From NCBI GenBank assembly GCA_003144275.1, contig NJBF01000009.1:7653-39652 (forward strand): a stretch of 32,000 nucleotides of DNA. Direction: 5' to 3'. Below are positions 12,380 to 28,568 of this stretch, piece after piece; position 1 is the stretch's first letter, and each line of letters opens with the position of its first letter. Source of the stretch: Candidatus Heimdallarchaeota archaeon B3_Heim. Lineage in GTDB: Archaea > Asgardarchaeota > Heimdallarchaeia > Hodarchaeales > Hodarchaeaceae. The position numbers and the translations under genes were made by a program. The notes beneath the pieces were generated by a model. That model was not told where the DNA came from, searched no databases, and saw only the letters and a program-made list of their open reading frames with translations.

Positions 12380-13243
12380 CTACAGTGGTTCATAGGTTAC
12401 CGATAGGCTTTCTATTGCTAAAATGCTTCCATTATCATCATCAGACAATGTAACAAAAATTAAATAAGGTTCTCCGGGATTAGTCAATTCGGATGAATTC
12501 AATTGGAAAAGATCCTCCTGAAAAGTGGTTGATTCGAACCCTTCCAATGTAAAGATATGTGAACTTCTGTTAATACTATTCAGTATGAAGAATAATCCGC
12601 TTGAGGAAGCTACAGAAAAATCTAACCGCAAATTCATATCCATACTTCCATTATTACTCAAAGAAAAGTTCATCGTTAGCCCTTCCTGACCAAAAGTTTG
12701 TGAGGGATTTAATGAAACCAGAGTAGTTGGTCCATAGGTGTCTCCAATGGTTAATACATCAGAGCTGAATGTTTTTGCGGATCTAGAGCTTGTTTTTCCT
12801 TGCGGAAACACAGTAACTTCAATAAAAATTGTGTCATTCCCAGGAATTAATTCATTCTGATCGATCGTGTTATCGCATGTGAGAGAAATTGTTTCAATGG
12901 CTAAACCTGGCAAGAGTATTTTCGATTGATCCATATACCAACCTGGAATTGGGGTTTTATCGAAATAAAGAAGTGAAAATGCATCAGCAGATATTTCAAC
13001 GTTTGTTCTTTCGGTATTCTGCAAAGTTATATCAAATCTATCAACTTTGATATCACTATCAGTGGTTTCAAAAGAAGAGATGGCTATAACTTCAACACCT
13101 AAAGGATCAGGAGTATTAATGGTACCAAACATCACTAAGGCGACTCCTAATCCAGCAACTACTACAAGTCCAATTAAAAGAACAGTGGCAATTACAGGAC
13201 TAATTCCTCTTTTTGTTTTTTTAGTAATAAGCCAATTCTTCAT
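12380..13243 (-). CDS. Archaeal type IV pilin-like protein (class III signal peptide) with beta-rich extracellular domains
   Basis: KKTKRG|ISPVIATVLLIGLVVVAG prepilin-peptidase motif and hydrophobic helix. The ATG at 13243 is preferred. Confidence 0.85.
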   Translation of the reverse strand: MKNWLITKKTKRGISPVIATVLLIGLVVVAGLGVALVMFGTINTPDPLGVEVIAISSFETTDSDIKVDRFDITLQNTERTNVEISADAFSLLYFDKTPIPGWYMDQSKILLPGLAIETISLTCDNTIDQNELIPGNDTIFIEVTVFPQGKTSSRSAKTFSSDVLTIGDTYGPTTLVSLNPSQTFGQEGLTMNFSLSNNGSMDMNLRLDFSVASSSGLFFILNSINRSSHIFTLEGFESTTFQEDLFQLNSSELTNPGEPYLIFVTLSDDDNGSILAIESLSVTYEPL

Positions 13244-13500
13244 AATTTCACATCTCACATCTTTTCTTAACTAGGGGTGATATTTACACAGAGGGAGAAA
13301 TTAGTAAAGGTAATTCAACGAAATTGAAAATCAATCGTATTATGATCTTTGTCCAAGTCTTCTCTTTTTTATCTTTCCTAACAAACATAAATCCTGATTC
13401 TGATTTTTCTCCATCAATTTCCGTAAGTTCATTTTTTAGGCTGTTATTGCTGGAATAATTTTATAATTCGCTCATTTTCCTTATCGATAGTAAAATAATT

Positions 13501-13636: not shown

Positions 13637-15475
13637 TTACCATCGTGAAAAACCAATTCCACAAGTTTCCGATATAAGTAACAAGAATAAAGCAATTTCC
13701 TCCATTTCTTGATTTGATTCTGATGCAACAAACGCAACTCCTTCTCCCTGATATAATGGTTGCAGAATCATTGATAGTATTGCATCTAACGTTTTACCCA
13801 GAGTCCACAAAGCTTCTGTTTCAATTTGCTCACGAATTTCTTTTTCATAAATGAAAGTTTTAAATTTTGATGGAATTTTTTCCTTAATAAAATCACGATT
13901 GGGAGGAATTACCAAAATGGCTCCTTCTCTTGGTATGTTAAATCTTGAAGAAAGTGTTTTAATATTCAGTTCTACTTGAGTAAGGTATTCTACGATGCTT
14001 AGCCATAATATTCCCCGTAGAGCAATTTTTTCATTTTCAGAAGAAACCCCTAAAGACACTGAACGTTCGTTGATTTCTAGGCTTCCTTCAAGCCTTGTTG
14101 CTAAGTCTTTTAACGAATCATGTATGCTTTCGAGTCTTGGTCCATATGTAGAGATATGATATTCAAAGCGATCACGCTTGCGGAACAAACTAACTGTAAT
14201 GTTTGATTCACTAGAAGGTACAACACTTGTTGGTGAGAGTTCAAGGGCCATGGGTGATGTATCTAGAACTACTGGAATGTCAGCGAAATTGTACTGTAAA
14301 CCGCTCTCTCTGGTTTTCTGTAGTTTTGCTTTAAGTCCGGGACTTAAGGCTTCTGTCGTTATGGAGCGTTTAATAACAGGTTTAACTATCGGTTGTTTTG
14401 TTGGAATTGCATCTGGCTCAGCATCTAGTTCAATAATAGGTGGTGGTGTGGTTTCTTCAATCGATGGAGTACCAATTAATGAGGATTGTGTCTGTAACTC
14501 ATCTTTTCCAACAACTAGTTCTTGAAGTTCGGGAAGTTCCGTAGTTTCTATTTCTCTTGATGGAGGAGTAAATTCTCGCATTTTATACATAACTGGAGCT
14601 GACATTGTTACTACAATGTCTTTTCCAGGTTGTATTACTGTTGAAAGTAATACATTGTTTCTGAGATAATTATCCTCACTTGAGGGAAACAGTGCCATGG
14701 ATTGAGCTATCTCTCGGGCATCCTCATTATCAATGAATTTTCTCATTTTTGCTGTATTGGTGTTCTCACCAAAAATTCTGCTAAGGACGTCATAAACATG
14801 CTCTCCTGCGTTTGCAGAAAAATACTGTTTGAGAGGTGATTCCAAACCGAAAATCAATATATTATCATTTTCCTCAACTCCAGGTATAGGAGTAAATGAC
14901 AGAACTCGCGAAGTCTTGGAAGCATCTATAATGGATAAAAGATCGCTTGTGTCATTTGGGTCTATGAAAACCAGTCTGGATACGACACTCTCAACCCCAT
15001 ATCTCAGATCATGAGCAAAAGCTGTAAGTAATACCAAAGCAGAAAGCATGCCATCTGGTGTTCGAGGAATGACATATATAGAATTTGCAGGAGATGTCAA
15101 TAATTGATAAAAGGTATCTAGATGTCTATTTTGAGCATCTAAGATATTTCCTTCCAGAAATTGTTCCACCAATTTTAATACAATTCCCATAGTAGGTACT
15201 ACTTGACGAGCACTTTTCTCTATAGGGATCAGCACAATTGCTACAAGATCGTCAATTCTTCTTACCTGTGGGAATAAAAATACCATCCGATGATTGGCAA
15301 ATCTAATAAAGTGAATTCTTTCTCCTCCCATAATCTTCTGTGAAAAAAGAGTGAGAACTTGGGTAACAGTTGCACTGATTTTTGAGTGTTGAGATAAAAG
15401 ACCTTTACCTGAGCTAAAAATTACTCTATTTTGGTGAACGACAAGGAGATCGGTAGAATCCATTCTTGTATCCAT
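13637..15475 (-). CDS. Hypothetical protein with N-terminal longin-like domain (possible DENN-like module), P/E/T-rich linker and unknown C-terminal alpha/beta domains
   Basis: The first ~105 aa follow a beta-beta-alpha-beta-beta-beta-alpha pattern (LLVVH..RVIFS / KISATV..LFSQKIMG / IHFIRF / RMVFL / LVAIVL / helix). The fold call is inference. Confidence 0.6.
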   Translation of the reverse strand: MDTRMDSTDLLVVHQNRVIFSSGKGLLSQHSKISATVTQVLTLFSQKIMGGERIHFIRFANHRMVFLFPQVRRIDDLVAIVLIPIEKSARQVVPTMGIVLKLVEQFLEGNILDAQNRHLDTFYQLLTSPANSIYVIPRTPDGMLSALVLLTAFAHDLRYGVESVVSRLVFIDPNDTSDLLSIIDASKTSRVLSFTPIPGVEENDNILIFGLESPLKQYFSANAGEHVYDVLSRIFGENTNTAKMRKFIDNEDAREIAQSMALFPSSEDNYLRNNVLLSTVIQPGKDIVVTMSAPVMYKMREFTPPSREIETTELPELQELVVGKDELQTQSSLIGTPSIEETTPPPIIELDAEPDAIPTKQPIVKPVIKRSITTEALSPGLKAKLQKTRESGLQYNFADIPVVLDTSPMALELSPTSVVPSSESNITVSLFRKRDRFEYHISTYGPRLESIHDSLKDLATRLEGSLEINERSVSLGVSSENEKIALRGILWLSIVEYLTQVELNIKTLSSRFNIPREGAILVIPPNRDFIKEKIPSKFKTFIYEKEIREQIETEALWTLGKTLDAILSMILQPLYQGEGVAFVASESNQEMEEIALFLLLISETCGIGFSRW

Positions 15476-15517: not shown

Positions 15518-16147
15518 TCAGGATCTAAAATTTGTAAGCTTAAAATCACCTTTTCGTAGGATTATTGGCTCATCAGGGGACGTTATATCAATAATAGTTG
15601 AAGGTGATCTTTGTGGTAAAATACCTTGATCAATCCACAAATCTACGCCTCTTGTTGAAAGATCATTAAATACTTCAGAAAAATTTATACTTGGTTCGTG
15701 ACCTGAGGTATTTGCTGAAGTACCGACAATTGGAGCCTCTATATTTCGTATAATACTTAGTAGGATATCATGTGCTGGTACACGACATGCAATTGTATTG
15801 TTACCAGATGTGTTTAAGTATGGAGATAGTTTTTTCAGGCCAGACATTTTCCAATCTACAATAAACGTAATTGGAGCAGGCCAAATTTCTCTAAGACTAT
15901 TGATGACGCTGCCAGGAGCCTCTATAAATTGAGATATCATATCTAAGGTCATTAATACACTTAATGGTTTTTCAAGAGACCTTTTCTTGATTTTAAAGAT
16001 CTTCTGTACATTTTTGTTATTTTGTTTTGTAGCAATAGTTCCTAATCCATAAACTGTATCAGTAGGAAATACAGCAATATCCCCTCTCCTCATTAATAAG
16101 GCAGCTTTACTTACTATTTCAGGATCACTTGTATCAAGAATTATCAA
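15518..16147 (-). CDS. tsaC: L-threonylcarbamoyladenylate synthase, single-domain TsaC/YrdC type
   Basis: FPTDTVYGL, KKR...KPLSV, WP.PIT, and TSANTSG. At 209 aa it has no SUA5 C-terminal domain. Confidence 0.93.
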   Translation of the reverse strand: MIILDTSDPEIVSKAALLMRRGDIAVFPTDTVYGLGTIATKQNNKNVQKIFKIKKRSLEKPLSVLMTLDMISQFIEAPGSVINSLREIWPAPITFIVDWKMSGLKKLSPYLNTSGNNTIACRVPAHDILLSIIRNIEAPIVGTSANTSGHEPSINFSEVFNDLSTRGVDLWIDQGILPQRSPSTIIDITSPDEPIILRKGDFKLTNFRS

Positions 16148-16223: not shown

Positions 16224-16976
16224 TTATTGTTGTTGTTTCATCATATGGATAATGATTTCTCTTACGAGGCTTTCTACAGGTTTTATCACGCGATTTACAC
16301 TTGTAGGTCTATATTCTTTTTTCAACCTACCATTTTCATCCACTATTTTACTCCGATCACTACTGGAAAGGAGTTGTTTCAAATCGTCACGAGCATTCAG
16401 GCATGAAACTTCAATAATTCTGACTGCTGCATCTCTTAAACTAGTCACCGCACCAGATTCACTCAACAATTTTCCCACTTCAAAAGAAGAAATGCGTTGC
16501 ACGATGGGGAGGTCCATTTTATTTAGCATAATATGATATGGAAGAGAACCACTTGCTAGTTTATCACCAACAAGGTCATTAATTTCCCGAAGTGCAAATT
16601 TATTTTCCTCCCATCTAGATTTTTCAGAATCAACAACACAAATTAATCCATGGGCTCCTCTTAAGACAACTTTCCTCTGTCCTGAGTGACGTTCCTGACC
16701 AGGCACAGTAAATAAATGATATTTTAAAATAGGGAGACCTGCGCTCGTTTTACCAATTCCAAAAATACCCTGATCAAAGAAAAGAGTACGTCCTGTTGGA
16801 TCTTCCAATTTTAAGAATTTATAAACATTTTCTGGATCTTCAAGGCTTTTTAACACCTTTGTTATTGTTAAAGCTGTGGTTTTCCCAGCCAGAGTAGGTC
16901 CCCAAAATACTATTTTAACTACAGGGACTCCTTGGTGATCTCTTTTTATGGTTTCAAAGGTTGATTGTGCCTGCAT
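16224..16976 (-). CDS. MglA-like small GTPase
   Basis: KIVFWGPTLAGKTT, GRTLFFD, HLFTVPGQ, RKVVLRGAHGLICVVDS and NKMD, which are the signatures of the MglA family. The ATG at 16976 is preferred. Confidence 0.85.
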   Translation of the reverse strand: MQAQSTFETIKRDHQGVPVVKIVFWGPTLAGKTTALTITKVLKSLEDPENVYKFLKLEDPTGRTLFFDQGIFGIGKTSAGLPILKYHLFTVPGQERHSGQRKVVLRGAHGLICVVDSEKSRWEENKFALREINDLVGDKLASGSLPYHIMLNKMDLPIVQRISSFEVGKLLSESGAVTSLRDAAVRIIEVSCLNARDDLKQLLSSSDRSKIVDENGRLKKEYRPTSVNRVIKPVESLVREIIIHMMKQQQ

Positions 16977-17036
16977 GATAAACACCTTGTAATGGATAGG
17001 GATGGACGCGTGTGTATGCAAAAGAGCTTTTTCAAA

Positions 17037-17600
17037 TTATTTTGATATGTTATCTTTCTCTATAACTTGTTTTGCTAAGCTATGGAAAATTTCAGTAATT
17101 TCAGAACCCCCCTCTTTTGCTGAGGTTTCATAATATGACATATTTAGTGCATCAGCAACTTTTCGGGCATCTTTTTCAGATACTACTCTTTCATCAACGA
17201 GATCGTTTTTATTTCCAGCTAAAGCAATGGGAACAGTTGGTGGGATGTACTTAGTAAATTCAGTTAACCAAGTCGGAATCGCCTCAAAAGACTTTTTATC
17301 AGTAAGTGCAAACATAATTAAGCAAGCTGTAGCTCCTCGGTAATAGCTCGGTCTTAATTTGCCAAAGAACTCCTGTCCAGCAGTGTCTACTAAGATTAAT
17401 TTAACTTGACTGTTATTAACCTCAATCTTCTTTGTTGTAATGTCAACACCTAGCGTTGGTAAATAATTGGTTTCGAATTTGTTCTCTGCAAATCTACGGA
17501 TGAGGGATGTTTTTCCTACACTCCCAGATCCAATTGCACAAATTTTGAGTAAGTATTCATTAGTATTTGTCAAAGATGAAACTCCTATTAATACTGTCAT
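17037..17600 (-). CDS. Rab-like small GTPase (no C-terminal prenylation Cys)
   Basis: GSGSVGKTS, PTLGVD, DTAGQE, YYRGA, NKND and ETSAK. Confidence 0.92.
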   Translation of the reverse strand: MTVLIGVSSLTNTNEYLLKICAIGSGSVGKTSLIRRFAENKFETNYLPTLGVDITTKKIEVNNSQVKLILVDTAGQEFFGKLRPSYYRGATACLIMFALTDKKSFEAIPTWLTEFTKYIPPTVPIALAGNKNDLVDERVVSEKDARKVADALNMSYYETSAKEGGSEITEIFHSLAKQVIEKDNISK

Positions 17601-18526
17601 AAACCCATTTTTGAAAGATCTTGTAGTGATTGTCGCATATCGTCAATAAATTCGTCTCGTTCGGAACGTGTTTTTTCCCTCAACATATCAACAAAGAGAA
17701 CCTGTCCATTTTCAATATACAGACGAACCTCATAGTGAGCAGCGGGGAATATACCCGAAGGTAAATCATCCATCGGTTCTAATTTTACAACATCCTTAGA
17801 AAAGAGCTGCAAATGCTCTTTAATGACCGAAAATACGGTATTTCCAATAATAACAATTTCTCTTGTCAAATGTGAAGGAATCGTTAATTCTTTTAATTTT
17901 TCAGCTACAACACTAAGGGGAGTGGAGGTCGTTGCATCGACTTGACGAGTAACAACAACTTCTGTTTCCTTCACTACTCTAGGTTTTGAAACAGGCGAAG
18001 GTGCACTACTCGGCCTGGGTGTGGGAGCAGCTGAGGGCGCTGGAGTAGATTGTACTGTAGGTGCTGGTTTTGGAGCGCGTACTGAAGCTTGTGCTGGAGT
18101 AGGACGTGCTTTTGGTACGGCAGTTGGAGCAGGACGAGGAGTTGAAACAGTAGTTTGAGAAGGAGCAGTTGTGGGACGTGATACAACCTGAGATTCAGCT
18201 TTATCTGCGTCTGAAGAACTGACTATTGATGGTATTTCGCCAAAGATAGCAAGAAAATCCTTCCCCTCTATTCCAGGGTCGAGGCTATCAATACGGTAAA
18301 CCATTCCATATTGTTCTTGTCGCATCTGTTGTGCAGCCTTGGCAGAAATAAACTTTCTTCTCACAGGGGCCTCTTCTCCCTTCCAAATAAAAATCTTTCT
18401 TAACCCTTCATCTACAATAATATAAACTGCATTATTTTGTAGTCCTCCAAGGGAAGACACATCACAATGAGTTAGAGTTCCATCGTCGTTTACTGTAAAC
18501 TTTTTAATTTGGTCAGAGTTGCTCAC
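17597..18526 (-). CDS. Gelsolin-like domain protein with Pro/Ala/Thr-rich linker and uncharacterised C-terminal domain
   Basis: VYIIVDEGLRKIFIWKGEEAPVRRKFISAKAAQQMR matches the gelsolin-repeat core (D....I(F/Y).W.G......K..A...A). It is followed by a ~70-aa PRP/PTP-rich linker. Its stop overlaps the Rab start (ATGA). Confidence 0.75.
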   Translation of the reverse strand: MSNSDQIKKFTVNDDGTLTHCDVSSLGGLQNNAVYIIVDEGLRKIFIWKGEEAPVRRKFISAKAAQQMRQEQYGMVYRIDSLDPGIEGKDFLAIFGEIPSIVSSSDADKAESQVVSRPTTAPSQTTVSTPRPAPTAVPKARPTPAQASVRAPKPAPTVQSTPAPSAAPTPRPSSAPSPVSKPRVVKETEVVVTRQVDATTSTPLSVVAEKLKELTIPSHLTREIVIIGNTVFSVIKEHLQLFSKDVVKLEPMDDLPSGIFPAAHYEVRLYIENGQVLFVDMLREKTRSERDEFIDDMRQSLQDLSKMGL

Positions 18527-18748
18527 AGGTTATCATCACACAGTTCCAAGTGTAAAATCCTGAGTATTTGGTGATTTTCGCGGATTTTCTATATGTAAAT
18601 GATATCACTACCACTTTTTAAAATCCACTTAATATAATGACTCATAAAAGGTTATGACATTCTTTCATAAATTTCTTTCTTTTTAACAAACATATCCTTT
18701 TAGATATATTTTTTGTTTAGTAGGGATTTTGTTTTTAATTGTATAAAA

Positions 18749-19564
18749 ATGAAAATTGATAATTGGATTGAGAGAGGATTAAATTCTTTAAGCTCAGGTG
18801 ATTTTTTTGATGGGATGCAACTGATGGAAGGAGCGATAAGACGAGTTTTTAGATCAGATCATCCTGATACAGCTTTAAGAATATTTAAAAGCACTAGTGA
18901 GATTCTAATCGCAGAAGGACTCGAAGATTTATATTGCCAATTCATAATAGGGACCATTCCTCTTTTCAAAAAGAAACTCGGGAATATTGAATGGTTTGCA
19001 CTTCTCCCTGAAATATTGGTCATTTTAAGAGAAAATAAAGTACTTTTATGCATTCCCAAGTTTATTAATAAAATGATTTTGGAAACGAAAATTGCTCAAG
19101 AGGATTTTATTCAAACAATGATTTTTGATGTTGCTAAAGGAAAATATTCCAAGAATATTGTCGCGGATCTGCACTATTATCATGCAGGATTGTTCGTTTC
19201 AAAACAGGACTATGTAAAGTGCTTTGATATTCTGAAAGAGTGGAATGACTTAATAGTTTCTTCTCCACGTGTATTAACATATTTAACTTTAGCTGAGTTA
19301 AATGCCTATGAAATTGAAGGTTGCGGTAAGTATCTAGAACTAGCCAAATCTCTCTCTGATACTTCTCCGTATATTGAACTAGCGAATCACCTTTACAAAT
19401 CCGTTGAGGCAGGTAATTATGATCTCTACTCATCAATTATTGGTGAATATGCTGACATAGTCAACGCTAAGCATGATGCATTACTCAAAGGTTTATGTGA
19501 TGGAATTTCCGATTTCTTAAAACCAAAAGGGAATAAAGGACTTTTCTCATTATTTGGAGGTTGA
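18749..19564 (+). CDS. Alpha-helical repeat protein resembling eukaryotic Get4/TRC35
   Basis: Three colinear motifs (S..GDFFD..Q......R, LH...A......QDY, P......L...V..G......I...Y) and a C-terminal LFSLFGG correspond to Get4 motifs recalled from memory. The ATG at 18749 is preferred. The CDS is confident; the family call is moderate. Confidence 0.65.
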   Translation: MKIDNWIERGLNSLSSGDFFDGMQLMEGAIRRVFRSDHPDTALRIFKSTSEILIAEGLEDLYCQFIIGTIPLFKKKLGNIEWFALLPEILVILRENKVLLCIPKFINKMILETKIAQEDFIQTMIFDVAKGKYSKNIVADLHYYHAGLFVSKQDYVKCFDILKEWNDLIVSSPRVLTYLTLAELNAYEIEGCGKYLELAKSLSDTSPYIELANHLYKSVEAGNYDLYSSIIGEYADIVNAKHDALLKGLCDGISDFLKPKGNKGLFSLFGG

Positions 19565-20659: not shown

Positions 20660-21217
20660 TTATTTCTTTAGGTGGTTACGTATCGTATGAGCAAGAGTAG
20701 TAAATGATTCATCAACGTTTTCACCAGTTTTTGCTGAAGTTTCAAGATAGGGAACTTTAAATCTTATATCATACTGACCCTTAATTTCCTCAATATAAGC
20801 TTGGACGTCTTCTGGTGTGACAGGATCATCAACCTCATTACGAAGATCCACCTTATTTCCTAAAATGGTTATTGGCATTATTCCTCTTCCTGAATTGCGA
20901 TAGAGTTCTTCTATCCAAGAAGACAGATTCGTAAAGGAATCACGTCTAGTAATATCAAAGACTAGAAGTCCACCATGCGACCCTTTATAATATAATTCTC
21001 GAACACTATTAAAACGAGGTTGTCCAGCCAAATCCCAAATTTGGAACTTAACGCTTTTTTTTCCTTCTTCAGTAGAGATTTGGGTCTTCTTAACAGCAAA
21101 ATCTGCGCCAATGGTCATCACATAACCACTCGAGAATTGTTTCCCAAGATATCGTTCACGTAATGCTGTTTTTCCGACTGCACCATCGCCTAATAGACAA
21201 ACTTTCATCAATAACAA
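20660..21217 (-). CDS. Rab-like small GTPase (no C-terminal prenylation Cys)
   Basis: GDGAVGKT, TIGADF, KFQIWDLAGQPRF, YYKGS, LVFDIT, NKVD and ETSAK. TTG start after GGAG. Confidence 0.93.
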   Translation of the reverse strand: MLLMKVCLLGDGAVGKTALRERYLGKQFSSGYVMTIGADFAVKKTQISTEEGKKSVKFQIWDLAGQPRFNSVRELYYKGSHGGLLVFDITRRDSFTNLSSWIEELYRNSGRGIMPITILGNKVDLRNEVDDPVTPEDVQAYIEEIKGQYDIRFKVPYLETSAKTGENVDESFTTLAHTIRNHLKK

Positions 21218-27157: not shown

Positions 27158-28568
27158 CATGATCAAATTTGTCGGACAAGTAAAAAAATTGAGGTTGAAA
27201 AAAGGCAAGTCATTTTCGTTTTCGGGGACCTCTCTCTGGTACAAGGTTAAATACAAGAAAAACAGTCCAATAAATGGGAATGCGAGCCAAAAAACAGACA
27301 CACCCACAACTGACAATAAGAATCCAAATGAAATCAAAGCCCATTTTTGTGGATTTGTGTACACGAGCCAAAAACTTGTATAATAGAGCTACCTACCAGG
27401 TGCGACAAGAATTTTTTGCCACAGGAAACTGGTTGCAGTATACAACTCTTTATCATCAACTAAAGCATGAACCAGTCTATTTGGCACTAAAAGAAATCTC
27501 TGATAGCTATCTCCCTCAACAAGTCCTCCGCCAGGTGGAACAAACCTGGAGAAGTTATTTTAATGCAATGAAAGTCTGGAAAAAAGAACCCAGTAAGTTT
27601 CTTGGTCAGCCTCGTCTTCCAGGCTATAAAGCAAAAAATGGCCTTCATGTGCTTAGCTTTCCACGACCCCGTGTCCGAATCCGAGGAACAGAGGTATTAT
27701 TTGCACGGAATTTAATGGCTCGTGGATTTCCCTCGTTTCCAGTGGGAAATCTCCCTGTTTCTAGAAAAACCTGTACGGGTGCTAGATTAGTGCCGTTTTA
27801 TGATCGATTTGTGGTTGAAATTCTGTATGAAACCGAAGTAAAGTCGTTATCCTCATTTAAAGAATCACCTAGAGCTATTGGTATAGATCTTGGGATTACT
27901 AACCTCGTAGCTACGTCAGACGGCTTACTCGTCAAAGGCGGGGTGGTAAAAACCGTCAATCAATGGTACAACAAGCAATTAGCCTATTTTAAATCACTCG
28001 CAAAAAAACACAATCAACAACATAATACACGTCGAATGCAACGGATGCATCGTGTCCGCGCAAATAAGATCAGTGATTATTTCCATCAAACCTCTCGAAC
28101 AATTATTAATCACTGTTTACAGAAAAATATTCACACCCTTGTTGTTGGCTATAATTCCTTTTGGAAACAGCATTGTAATTTGGGAAAACGAACAAACCAA
28201 TCATTCGTCCAAATACCCTTTTTTAAATTACTTCATATGCTTGAATATAAAGCTAAATTAGTGGGTATATCCGTTATTCGTGTCTCAGAAGCATATACTT
28301 CTCAACAGTGTAGTGATTGTGGTATAATTGATAAATGTAACCGAAGATCGCGAGGATTGTACCATTGTCGTTCCTGTGGCCTTCGTCTTAACGCCGATCA
28401 CAATGCCGCCATTAATATTCTTCAGCGTTCATCTCTTGATAAACAAGTAGTCCCTTCGGTCAGTTCAAGCTCTATTTGTTCTGATCAGCCGGATAGGGGA
28501 TGTGTGACTCATCCTGTCGTGACTCAAAAAGTTTAGTATTCTTTTTTTGTCCGACAAATCTAGTCATG
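27158..28568 (+). mobile_element. 1411-bp solo-TnpB insertion element (IS200/IS605 superfamily, IS1341-like organisation; no tnpA)
   Basis: A single tnpB ORF bounded by 23-bp imperfect inverted ends: 27157-27179 versus the reverse complement of 28547-28569, 20/23 identical. Boundaries are supported by where homology to copies A and B stops. Confidence 0.85.
27274..28536 (+). CDS. tnpB: TnpB RNA-guided endonuclease with rearranged RuvC-II site
   Basis: N-terminal OrfB HTH (KNLYN...), RuvC-I AIGIDLG, VVGYN..WKQ in place of the canonical E, alternative E in RVSEAYTS, CSDC/CRSC zinc finger and RuvC-III NADHNAAINI. Confidence 0.96.
   Translation: MGMRAKKQTHPQLTIRIQMKSKPIFVDLCTRAKNLYNRATYQVRQEFFATGNWLQYTTLYHQLKHEPVYLALKEISDSYLPQQVLRQVEQTWRSYFNAMKVWKKEPSKFLGQPRLPGYKAKNGLHVLSFPRPRVRIRGTEVLFARNLMARGFPSFPVGNLPVSRKTCTGARLVPFYDRFVVEILYETEVKSLSSFKESPRAIGIDLGITNLVATSDGLLVKGGVVKTVNQWYNKQLAYFKSLAKKHNQQHNTRRMQRMHRVRANKISDYFHQTSRTIINHCLQKNIHTLVVGYNSFWKQHCNLGKRTNQSFVQIPFFKLLHMLEYKAKLVGISVIRVSEAYTSQQCSDCGIIDKCNRRSRGLYHCRSCGLRLNADHNAAINILQRSSLDKQVVPSVSSSSICSDQPDRGCVTHPVVTQKV

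Follow-up and report, generated by a model that had tools for sequence, protein, structure and literature searches.

Cells of Asgard archaea, among them a cultured Hodarchaeales strain, crawl by means of actin-filled protrusions, and the spatial control of their actin is treated as an open question (PMC13716822). The closest described counterparts of the protein considered here are two gelsolins of the GelX type. Thor 1DGelX severs actin in vitro and also nucleates and sequesters it, all independently of calcium (PMC7444086), and B35_GelX of L. ossiferum is one of the gelsolins discussed as enriched when Lokiactin was co-immunoprecipitated (bioRxiv 10.1101/2025.11.30.690169; PMC13716822). Small GTPases are encoded by the dozen in Asgard genomes, and it has been described as difficult to pair them with regulators or effectors on the basis of gene layout (PMC10933270). 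Roadblock dimers are known as platforms for GTPase-activating proteins (GAPs) and guanine nucleotide exchange factors (GEFs) (PMC10933270), and a conserved neighbourhood joining a roadblock gene to a Rab-like GTPase gene has been described as the Asgard roadblock-Rab-DENN operon (bioRxiv 10.1101/2020.10.19.343400). In Myxococcus, MglA in its GTP-bound form is linked to MreB, a homologue of actin (PMC4508894). Here, a window of 32,000 nt from Candidatus Heimdallarchaeota archaeon B3_Heim (contig NJBF01000009.1, positions 7,653 to 39,652) was analysed, in which a gelsolin gene, gelX, is followed by genes for a Rab-like and an MglA-like GTPase.

Judged by gene order in other Asgard genomes, GelX and small-GTPase signalling may have been linked since early in Asgard history, with this locus as the form that the linkage takes in Hodarchaeales; the linked switch would control calcium-independent severing of actin. 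This is the reading that we favour, at about even odds. In contrast to the roadblock-Rab-DENN operon, in which a DENN protein is encoded but a gelsolin is not, the linkage described here is centred on a gelsolin gene. All component families are already known, and the linkage itself is apparently undescribed: an incomplete search of the literature yielded no description of gelX in linkage with genes for roadblock, Rab-like or MglA-like proteins, and the available portions of the 1DGelX and B35_GelX papers do not mention such neighbours. If the reading is true, GTPase control of actin would be older than eukaryotes. It is a testable, as yet unproven lead resting on gene order, and the locus singles out four proteins for joint study: GelX, the two GTPases of Rab-like and MglA-like type, and a single roadblock protein of very high conservation.

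The genome of the window, labelled G000 (3.95 Mb, 94% complete), very probably belongs to the genus Hodarchaeum, and other genomes of the same genus are called congeners below. Of its roughly 3,480 genes, about 46 encode small GTPases and six encode gelsolin-domain proteins; three genes are clearly MglA-like, and a single canonical actin gene lies on a contig other than that of the window (C8). Three uninterrupted open reading frames (ORFs) are followed by tsaC and a gene for a 612-aa protein:

17597..18526, minus strand: gelX, gelsolin of the GelX/1DGelX type, 309 aa, GTG start
17037..17573, minus strand: Rab-like GTPase, 178 aa from the likely start TTG 17573
16224..16976, minus strand: MglA-like GTPase, 250 aa, start ATG 16976
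15518..16147, minus strand: tsaC/Sua5 threonylcarbamoyl-AMP synthase, co-directional with the three genes above
13637..15475, minus strand: gene for the 612-aa protein, co-directional, 3' of tsaC

Gene order around gelX

The gelX gene is nearly universal in Asgard archaea. The position 3' of gelX is occupied by a roadblock gene in most Asgard lineages and by a GTPase gene in Hodarchaeales, both specifying parts of small-GTPase switches. One roadblock family was found directly downstream of gelX and on the same strand in 27 out of 38 loci of other Asgard classes, with one more in convergent orientation, and also in eight loci of three other families of the window's class. These loci are a sample in which related genomes are not independent, and the pair spans many families. 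The roadblock proteins belong to PF03259 and matched the Asgard roadblock structures 9jue and 7f8m. The Hodarchaeum orthologue is encoded on the minus strand at C21:19946-20380 of G000 (L191:5947-6381), unlinked to gelX. In the congeners checked it is 98-100% identical over 144 aa, compared with about 50% typical for neighbouring genes.

In both genomes available from a sister family, G022 and G023, gelX is followed by the Rab-like gene at GelX identities of 41-53%, and the same pair, separated by about 26 nt, is present in G105, which belongs to another class. In G022, tsaC and every flanking gene have given way to others, and another roadblock gene lies directly upstream of gelX, in the order roadblock>gelX>rab>mglA>subtilase>612-aa gene. 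Background retention of neighbour pairs is 14 of 41 (34%) in the sister family and 6 of 29 (21%) in G105, and the pairs retained are largely those of ribosomal-protein and dnaK operons. Because gelX>rab is kept where background retention is low, it is, as far as gene order tells, an old pair, mglA being the looser member. Contamination by Hodarchaeum was considered as a source of the G105 contig and rejected, its other genes being 26-43% identical to those of G000 or without match. Within the genus, gelX>rab>mglA>tsaC is kept in 19 out of 21 congeners; of the two exceptions, one contig stops after gelX and one genome, 70% complete, is without the locus.

The chance that one of the six gelsolin genes of G000 has a GTPase gene directly downstream was calculated as about 8%. 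For two GTPase genes in succession after a gelsolin gene it is about 0.1%, assuming independent genes; GTPase genes cluster in G000, where four adjacent pairs were counted.

Further arrangements were observed in other lineages. In two families (L139, L140, L151, L152) a fusion of a Rab-like GTPase with a long C-terminal region, identified in L151 as an M20 peptidase, is encoded two genes upstream of gelX>roadblock. Five loci of one family (L159, L161-L163, L166) have the order nnr>gelX>roadblock>vWA protein>AbrB/ACT-like>unknown>actin-related gene; the latter, four genes downstream of gelX>roadblock, matched Pfam Actin at E 2e-44.

GelX and the two GTPases

The earlier note on this DNA had assigned the three genes to the gelsolin, Rab-like and MglA-like families, and profile as well as PDB-structure matches proved these assignments right. 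Within GelX, three parts were distinguished:

18233..18508, minus strand: gelsolin-homology domain, aa ~7-98
17918..18229, minus strand: Pro/Ala/Ser/Thr-rich linker, aa ~100-203
17600..17917, minus strand: domain X, conserved beta-rich C-terminal domain, aa 204-309

The gelsolin region matched Thor 2DGel3 (E 5e-8), and the GelX family profile matched Loki 2DGel and ProGel (E 2e-17); PF00626 was matched at E<=0.05 by 38 out of 62 family members. GelX contains a single gelsolin-homology domain in which the DWG motif (D39/W48/G50) is retained. All 62 members have K58 and F59 in the long helix, and R56 and R69 are nearly invariant. Arg57 occupies the position of a Glu in Thor 2DGel, and residue 57 is never acidic in the family. 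This position is presumably that of the type II calcium ligand. Like Thor 1DGelX and B35_GelX, the protein combines a single gelsolin domain bearing the DWG motif with a long linker and a C-terminal domain X, and it has no acidic residue at the type II calcium position; the match is one of architecture. The long linker and the conserved domain X are common to GelX proteins across Asgard classes. For a member of about 300 aa from another class, ProGel was the best PDB match (E 1e-14), in accordance with the similarity reported between 1DGelX and ProGel.

The linker is the least conserved part of GelX, with 19% Pro and 30-45% identity in distant congeners. Its longest proline run is one residue in this protein and one to two in congeners. 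The idea that the linker recruits profilin is unsupported and was rejected, because a polyproline run is lacking; the linker has no two consecutive prolines here, and poor conservation points in the same direction. Heimdall profilin binds a VASP polyproline peptide weakly, at 0.3-3.3 mM (PMC8410842). A Pfam profilin search of G000 gave no matches, but the controls were equally unmatched, so that the result is silent on absence.

Domain X was detected in 215 out of 251 Asgard genomes, mostly with one match per genome. The model (predicted local distance difference test, pLDDT, 81) consists of a helix, four strands including a long hairpin, and a terminal helix, whereas the 1DGelX and B35_GelX papers describe the region as a predicted coiled coil or as disordered. 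Foldseek returned no match at E<=0.001 and the best VIA Z was 3.2, which is not proof of a new fold; Atlas matches above a template modelling (TM) score of 0.5 were confined to Asgard clusters. As modelled, domain X would be a folded, near-universal Asgard domain for which no solved relative was found. In most classes the long hairpin has a hydrophobic tip followed by Lys, and it is deleted in the examined members of three other families of the window's class. The hairpin may be an element that binds a membrane or a partner.

The Rab-like protein matched Pfam Ras (E 6e-51), and its best PDB matches are all Rabs. The G1-G5 motifs are complete, including G1 GSGSVGKT, switch-I Thr40, DTAGQ with Gln67, NKND and SAK. 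Among the RabF motifs, YYRGA is exact and the others are partly matched. Complete G1-G5 motifs, the catalytic Gln, YYRGA and the Rab structures matched are shared with eukaryotic Rabs and with Asgard Thor-Rab (PMC10933270). Unlike eukaryotic Rabs, the protein has no hypervariable tail and no C-terminal prenylation cysteines; in the last 12 residues a cysteine is absent here and in every congener examined. A role in membrane identity, which the earlier note associated with Rabs, found no support here. In the Rab tree, the gelX-adjacent proteins form one clade (92/96), which also includes five G000 paralogues. Three Rab-like paralogues nested in this clade have longer branches (G000 C11:30881-31588, C79:11097-11609 and C9:3913-4428), which suggests recent duplication and fast divergence of these sequences.

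The MglA-like protein matched MglA structures (E 2e-18) far above other GTPases. Its catalytic motifs are all intact (GPTLAGKTT, Arg63 within RTLFFD, TVPGQ, NKMD, SCL). With MglA of Myxococcus and Thermus (PDB 6hjh, 3t12; PMC4508894; PMC13408092) the protein shares the switch-I Arg of RTLFFD, the replacement of the G3 Asp by Thr (TVPGQ) and the NKxD motif, and a link to the actin family may be a further likeness, drawn by analogy. In contrast to the MglA-MglB system, the gene is without an adjacent MglB gene and has gelsolin and Rab-like neighbours, and its product has an insert of about 35 aa after G5, which is missing from classic MglA and marks an Asgard subfamily. In 19 congeners no stand-alone roadblock gene was present in the locus, and the nearest candidates are unlinked. 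A separate classic MglA gene is located on contig C57 of G000, with roadblock genes on both sides. The MglA-like protein is 86% identical in distant congeners, compared with 36-60% for most neighbours, and locus-type MglAs form one clade (93) in the MglA tree. In other families (L134-L137, L125/L126), an actin-like gene was observed three genes upstream of the MglA orthologue (one family) or directly downstream of an MglA paralogue (one genus of a second family).

A putative switch on actin severing and its alternatives

In the mechanism proposed, GelX would sever actin via its gelsolin domain and would require another control because the calcium switch is missing. This control would most likely consist in local recruitment or release of GelX as the Rab-like GTPase, the MglA-like GTPase or both pass through the GTP/GDP cycle, with the conserved roadblock dimer, now encoded elsewhere, as a putative MglB-type GAP/GEF platform and domain X as the candidate docking site. 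The gelX-Rab pair would be the core, MglA a looser member and tsaC a passenger, and spatial control of actin turnover in protrusions would be the output. It is somewhat unlikely, but possible, that GelX, the roadblock protein and a Rab-like or MglA-like GTPase physically assemble into a switch that toggles actin severing through domain X upon loading with GTP. Complex prediction for domain X with two Hodarchaeum roadblock copies gave ipSAE values of 0.09 and 0.03 at a mark of 0.32, without folded controls, and so speaks neither for nor against binding. Control of polarity or protrusion, as envisaged in the earlier note, would be an analogy with Myxococcus MglA.

A number of observations weigh against a functional linkage. 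Conservation within the genus says little alone, because flanking genes are likewise conserved; it was rejected as strong evidence, 108 of 140 neighbour pairs (77%) at these loci being conserved anyway. Beyond the genus, the gene order expected from the earlier note stood in part. The gelX>Rab pair was recovered in two families and in a genome of another class, and the gelX-roadblock pair in most other Asgard lineages, but the junction between Rab and MglA did not hold. It is broken in G023, where gelX>rab is followed by unrelated genes and mglA lies on a different contig, and inverted in G105, where the MglA orthologue is convergent and 325 nt beyond. MglA orthologues do not lie near gelX or Rab in five further families, nor in two more genomes from the class of G105. 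Even the retention of gelX>rab across families has a background chance of about 0.07 and comes from three genomes. In the single-contig congener G009, 1.1 Mb separates the roadblock orthologue from gelX. On the upstream side of gelX, several lineages usually have the unrelated metabolic gene nnr, which is equally persistent and shows that passengers can last long, and eukaryote-signature genes of Asgard archaea mostly lie outside functional operons (PMC10933270; bioRxiv 10.1101/2020.10.19.343400).

Much of this could be explained by gene-order inertia, which we consider possible but somewhat unlikely. The three conserved eukaryote-signature genes would have been joined in an ancestor of Hodarchaeales and co-transcribed, and the GTPases would serve membrane traffic or nutrient signalling instead of GelX. 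The high background synteny in the genus, the about 46 GTPases per genome and the ordinary gap sizes (<=25 nt in 38% and <=60 nt in 52% of same-strand gaps in G000) are consistent with such a history, as are the lability of the MglA link and the persistence of the unrelated genes tsaC and nnr beside gelX. Inertia does not readily account for the downstream partner of gelX being a roadblock gene in most classes and a Rab-like GTPase gene in Hodarchaeales, both parts of a switch, nor for gelX>Rab outliving tsaC and all flanking genes. The place of tsaC in the module, implied when the run was described, is not upheld: it is missing from the sister-family cluster and its position was seen only within the genus. 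As a functional member it was rejected, and it is likely a passenger.

Alternatively, the MglA-like GTPase might bind actin filaments directly and mark the protrusion end, as in Myxococcus-like polarity, with GelX and the Rab-like GTPase acting in parallel at that site but not bound to one another. Intact MglA motifs, 86% conservation, the lineage-specific insert and the precedent of MglA and MreB (PMC4508894) agree with this view, and an archaeal actin-like gene (ALP_N/MreB-like_C) near MglA-family genes in two other families would fit as well. Nevertheless, it is unlikely, since that actin-like gene is without match in G000, the locus encodes no MglB, the classic MglA with two roadblock neighbours sits elsewhere, and for the Lokiactin co-immunoprecipitation an Arf GTPase, not an MglA, is named as enriched (PMC13716822). 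Still less probable is a role of the gelsolin domain as GTPase-activating module for the adjacent Rab-like GTPase, with actin binding secondary, although the gelsolin domain of Sec23 gives Sar1 a catalytic residue (PMC11914678). The direct upstream position of gelX and the nearly invariant R56 and R69 could be taken in its favour, but the domain is closest to the actin-binding ProGel/2DGel, and Sec23 was not retrieved at E<=1. The arginine finger of Sec23, located before the last helix, would correspond to a position holding Asp/Glu/Thr, not Arg. Moreover, Thor 1DGelX acts on actin (PMC7444086).

Start codons and neighbouring genes

The three same-strand genes described in the earlier note are intact ORFs, with a gap of 60 nt between the Rab-like and the MglA-like gene when ATG 16976 is used, and the run does continue into tsaC and a further gene. 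With the Rab-like start at TTG 17573, the gaps along the run are 23, 60, 76 and 42 nt. The ATGA overlap of 4 nt, by which the gelsolin and Rab-like genes had been thought to be coupled, is present as sequence only in the window and its nearest relative. It is probably an artefact of ORF calling, because the Rab-like genes of the other congeners start in register with TTG 17573, about 16-28 nt past the gelsolin stop and often after GGAG, and here TTG 17573 is preceded by a corresponding site:

17582..17586, minus strand: AGGAG, resembling a Shine-Dalgarno site, 8 nt upstream of TTG 17573

The true start of the Rab-like gene is therefore likely TTG 17573, leaving 23 nt to gelX. For the MglA-like gene, ATG 16976 has an AGGTG Shine-Dalgarno-like site and gives a length in agreement with the 250-aa proteins of congeners, by which the alternative start TTG 17021 was ruled out. 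The short gaps and the Shine-Dalgarno-like sites are consistent with a putative operon. A scan for sigma-70 promoters and terminators, which is ill-suited to archaea, gave counts at chance level.

About 2 kb upstream of gelX, a second Rab-like GTPase (20660-21217) is encoded by the first gene of a run that also contains trm56 and a SLOG gene. It is 75-80% identical in distant congeners and belongs to a Rab clade separate from that of the gelX-adjacent Rab. Between them, a divergent helical-repeat gene (18713-19564) has its upstream region in common with gelX in all congeners examined. A type IV pilin-like gene (12380-13258), present in some congeners only, follows the 612-aa gene on the same strand, and a TnpB/IS605 OrfB gene is located at 27274-28536.

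The 612-aa protein is confined to Hodarchaeales among the genomes searched. Its model (predicted TM score, pTM, 0.46; 19-row alignment) contains an N-terminal roadblock/longin-like domain, then DHH/RecJ-like domains and, at the C-terminus, a small kinase-like fold. The N-terminal domain matched LAMTOR4/5 (Z 6.6, root-mean-square deviation 2.9, 70 aligned) and Mon1-Ccz1; there was no DENN entry among the matches listed in the fold searches, and the Atlas fold search gave no matches for the protein. In the DHH/RecJ-like part, which resembles the fold of Cdc45, the first motif is apparently degenerate. The modelled protein may serve as a GTPase platform, since its gene accompanies the trio in G022 too. 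In three congeners its N-terminal half has a paralogue.

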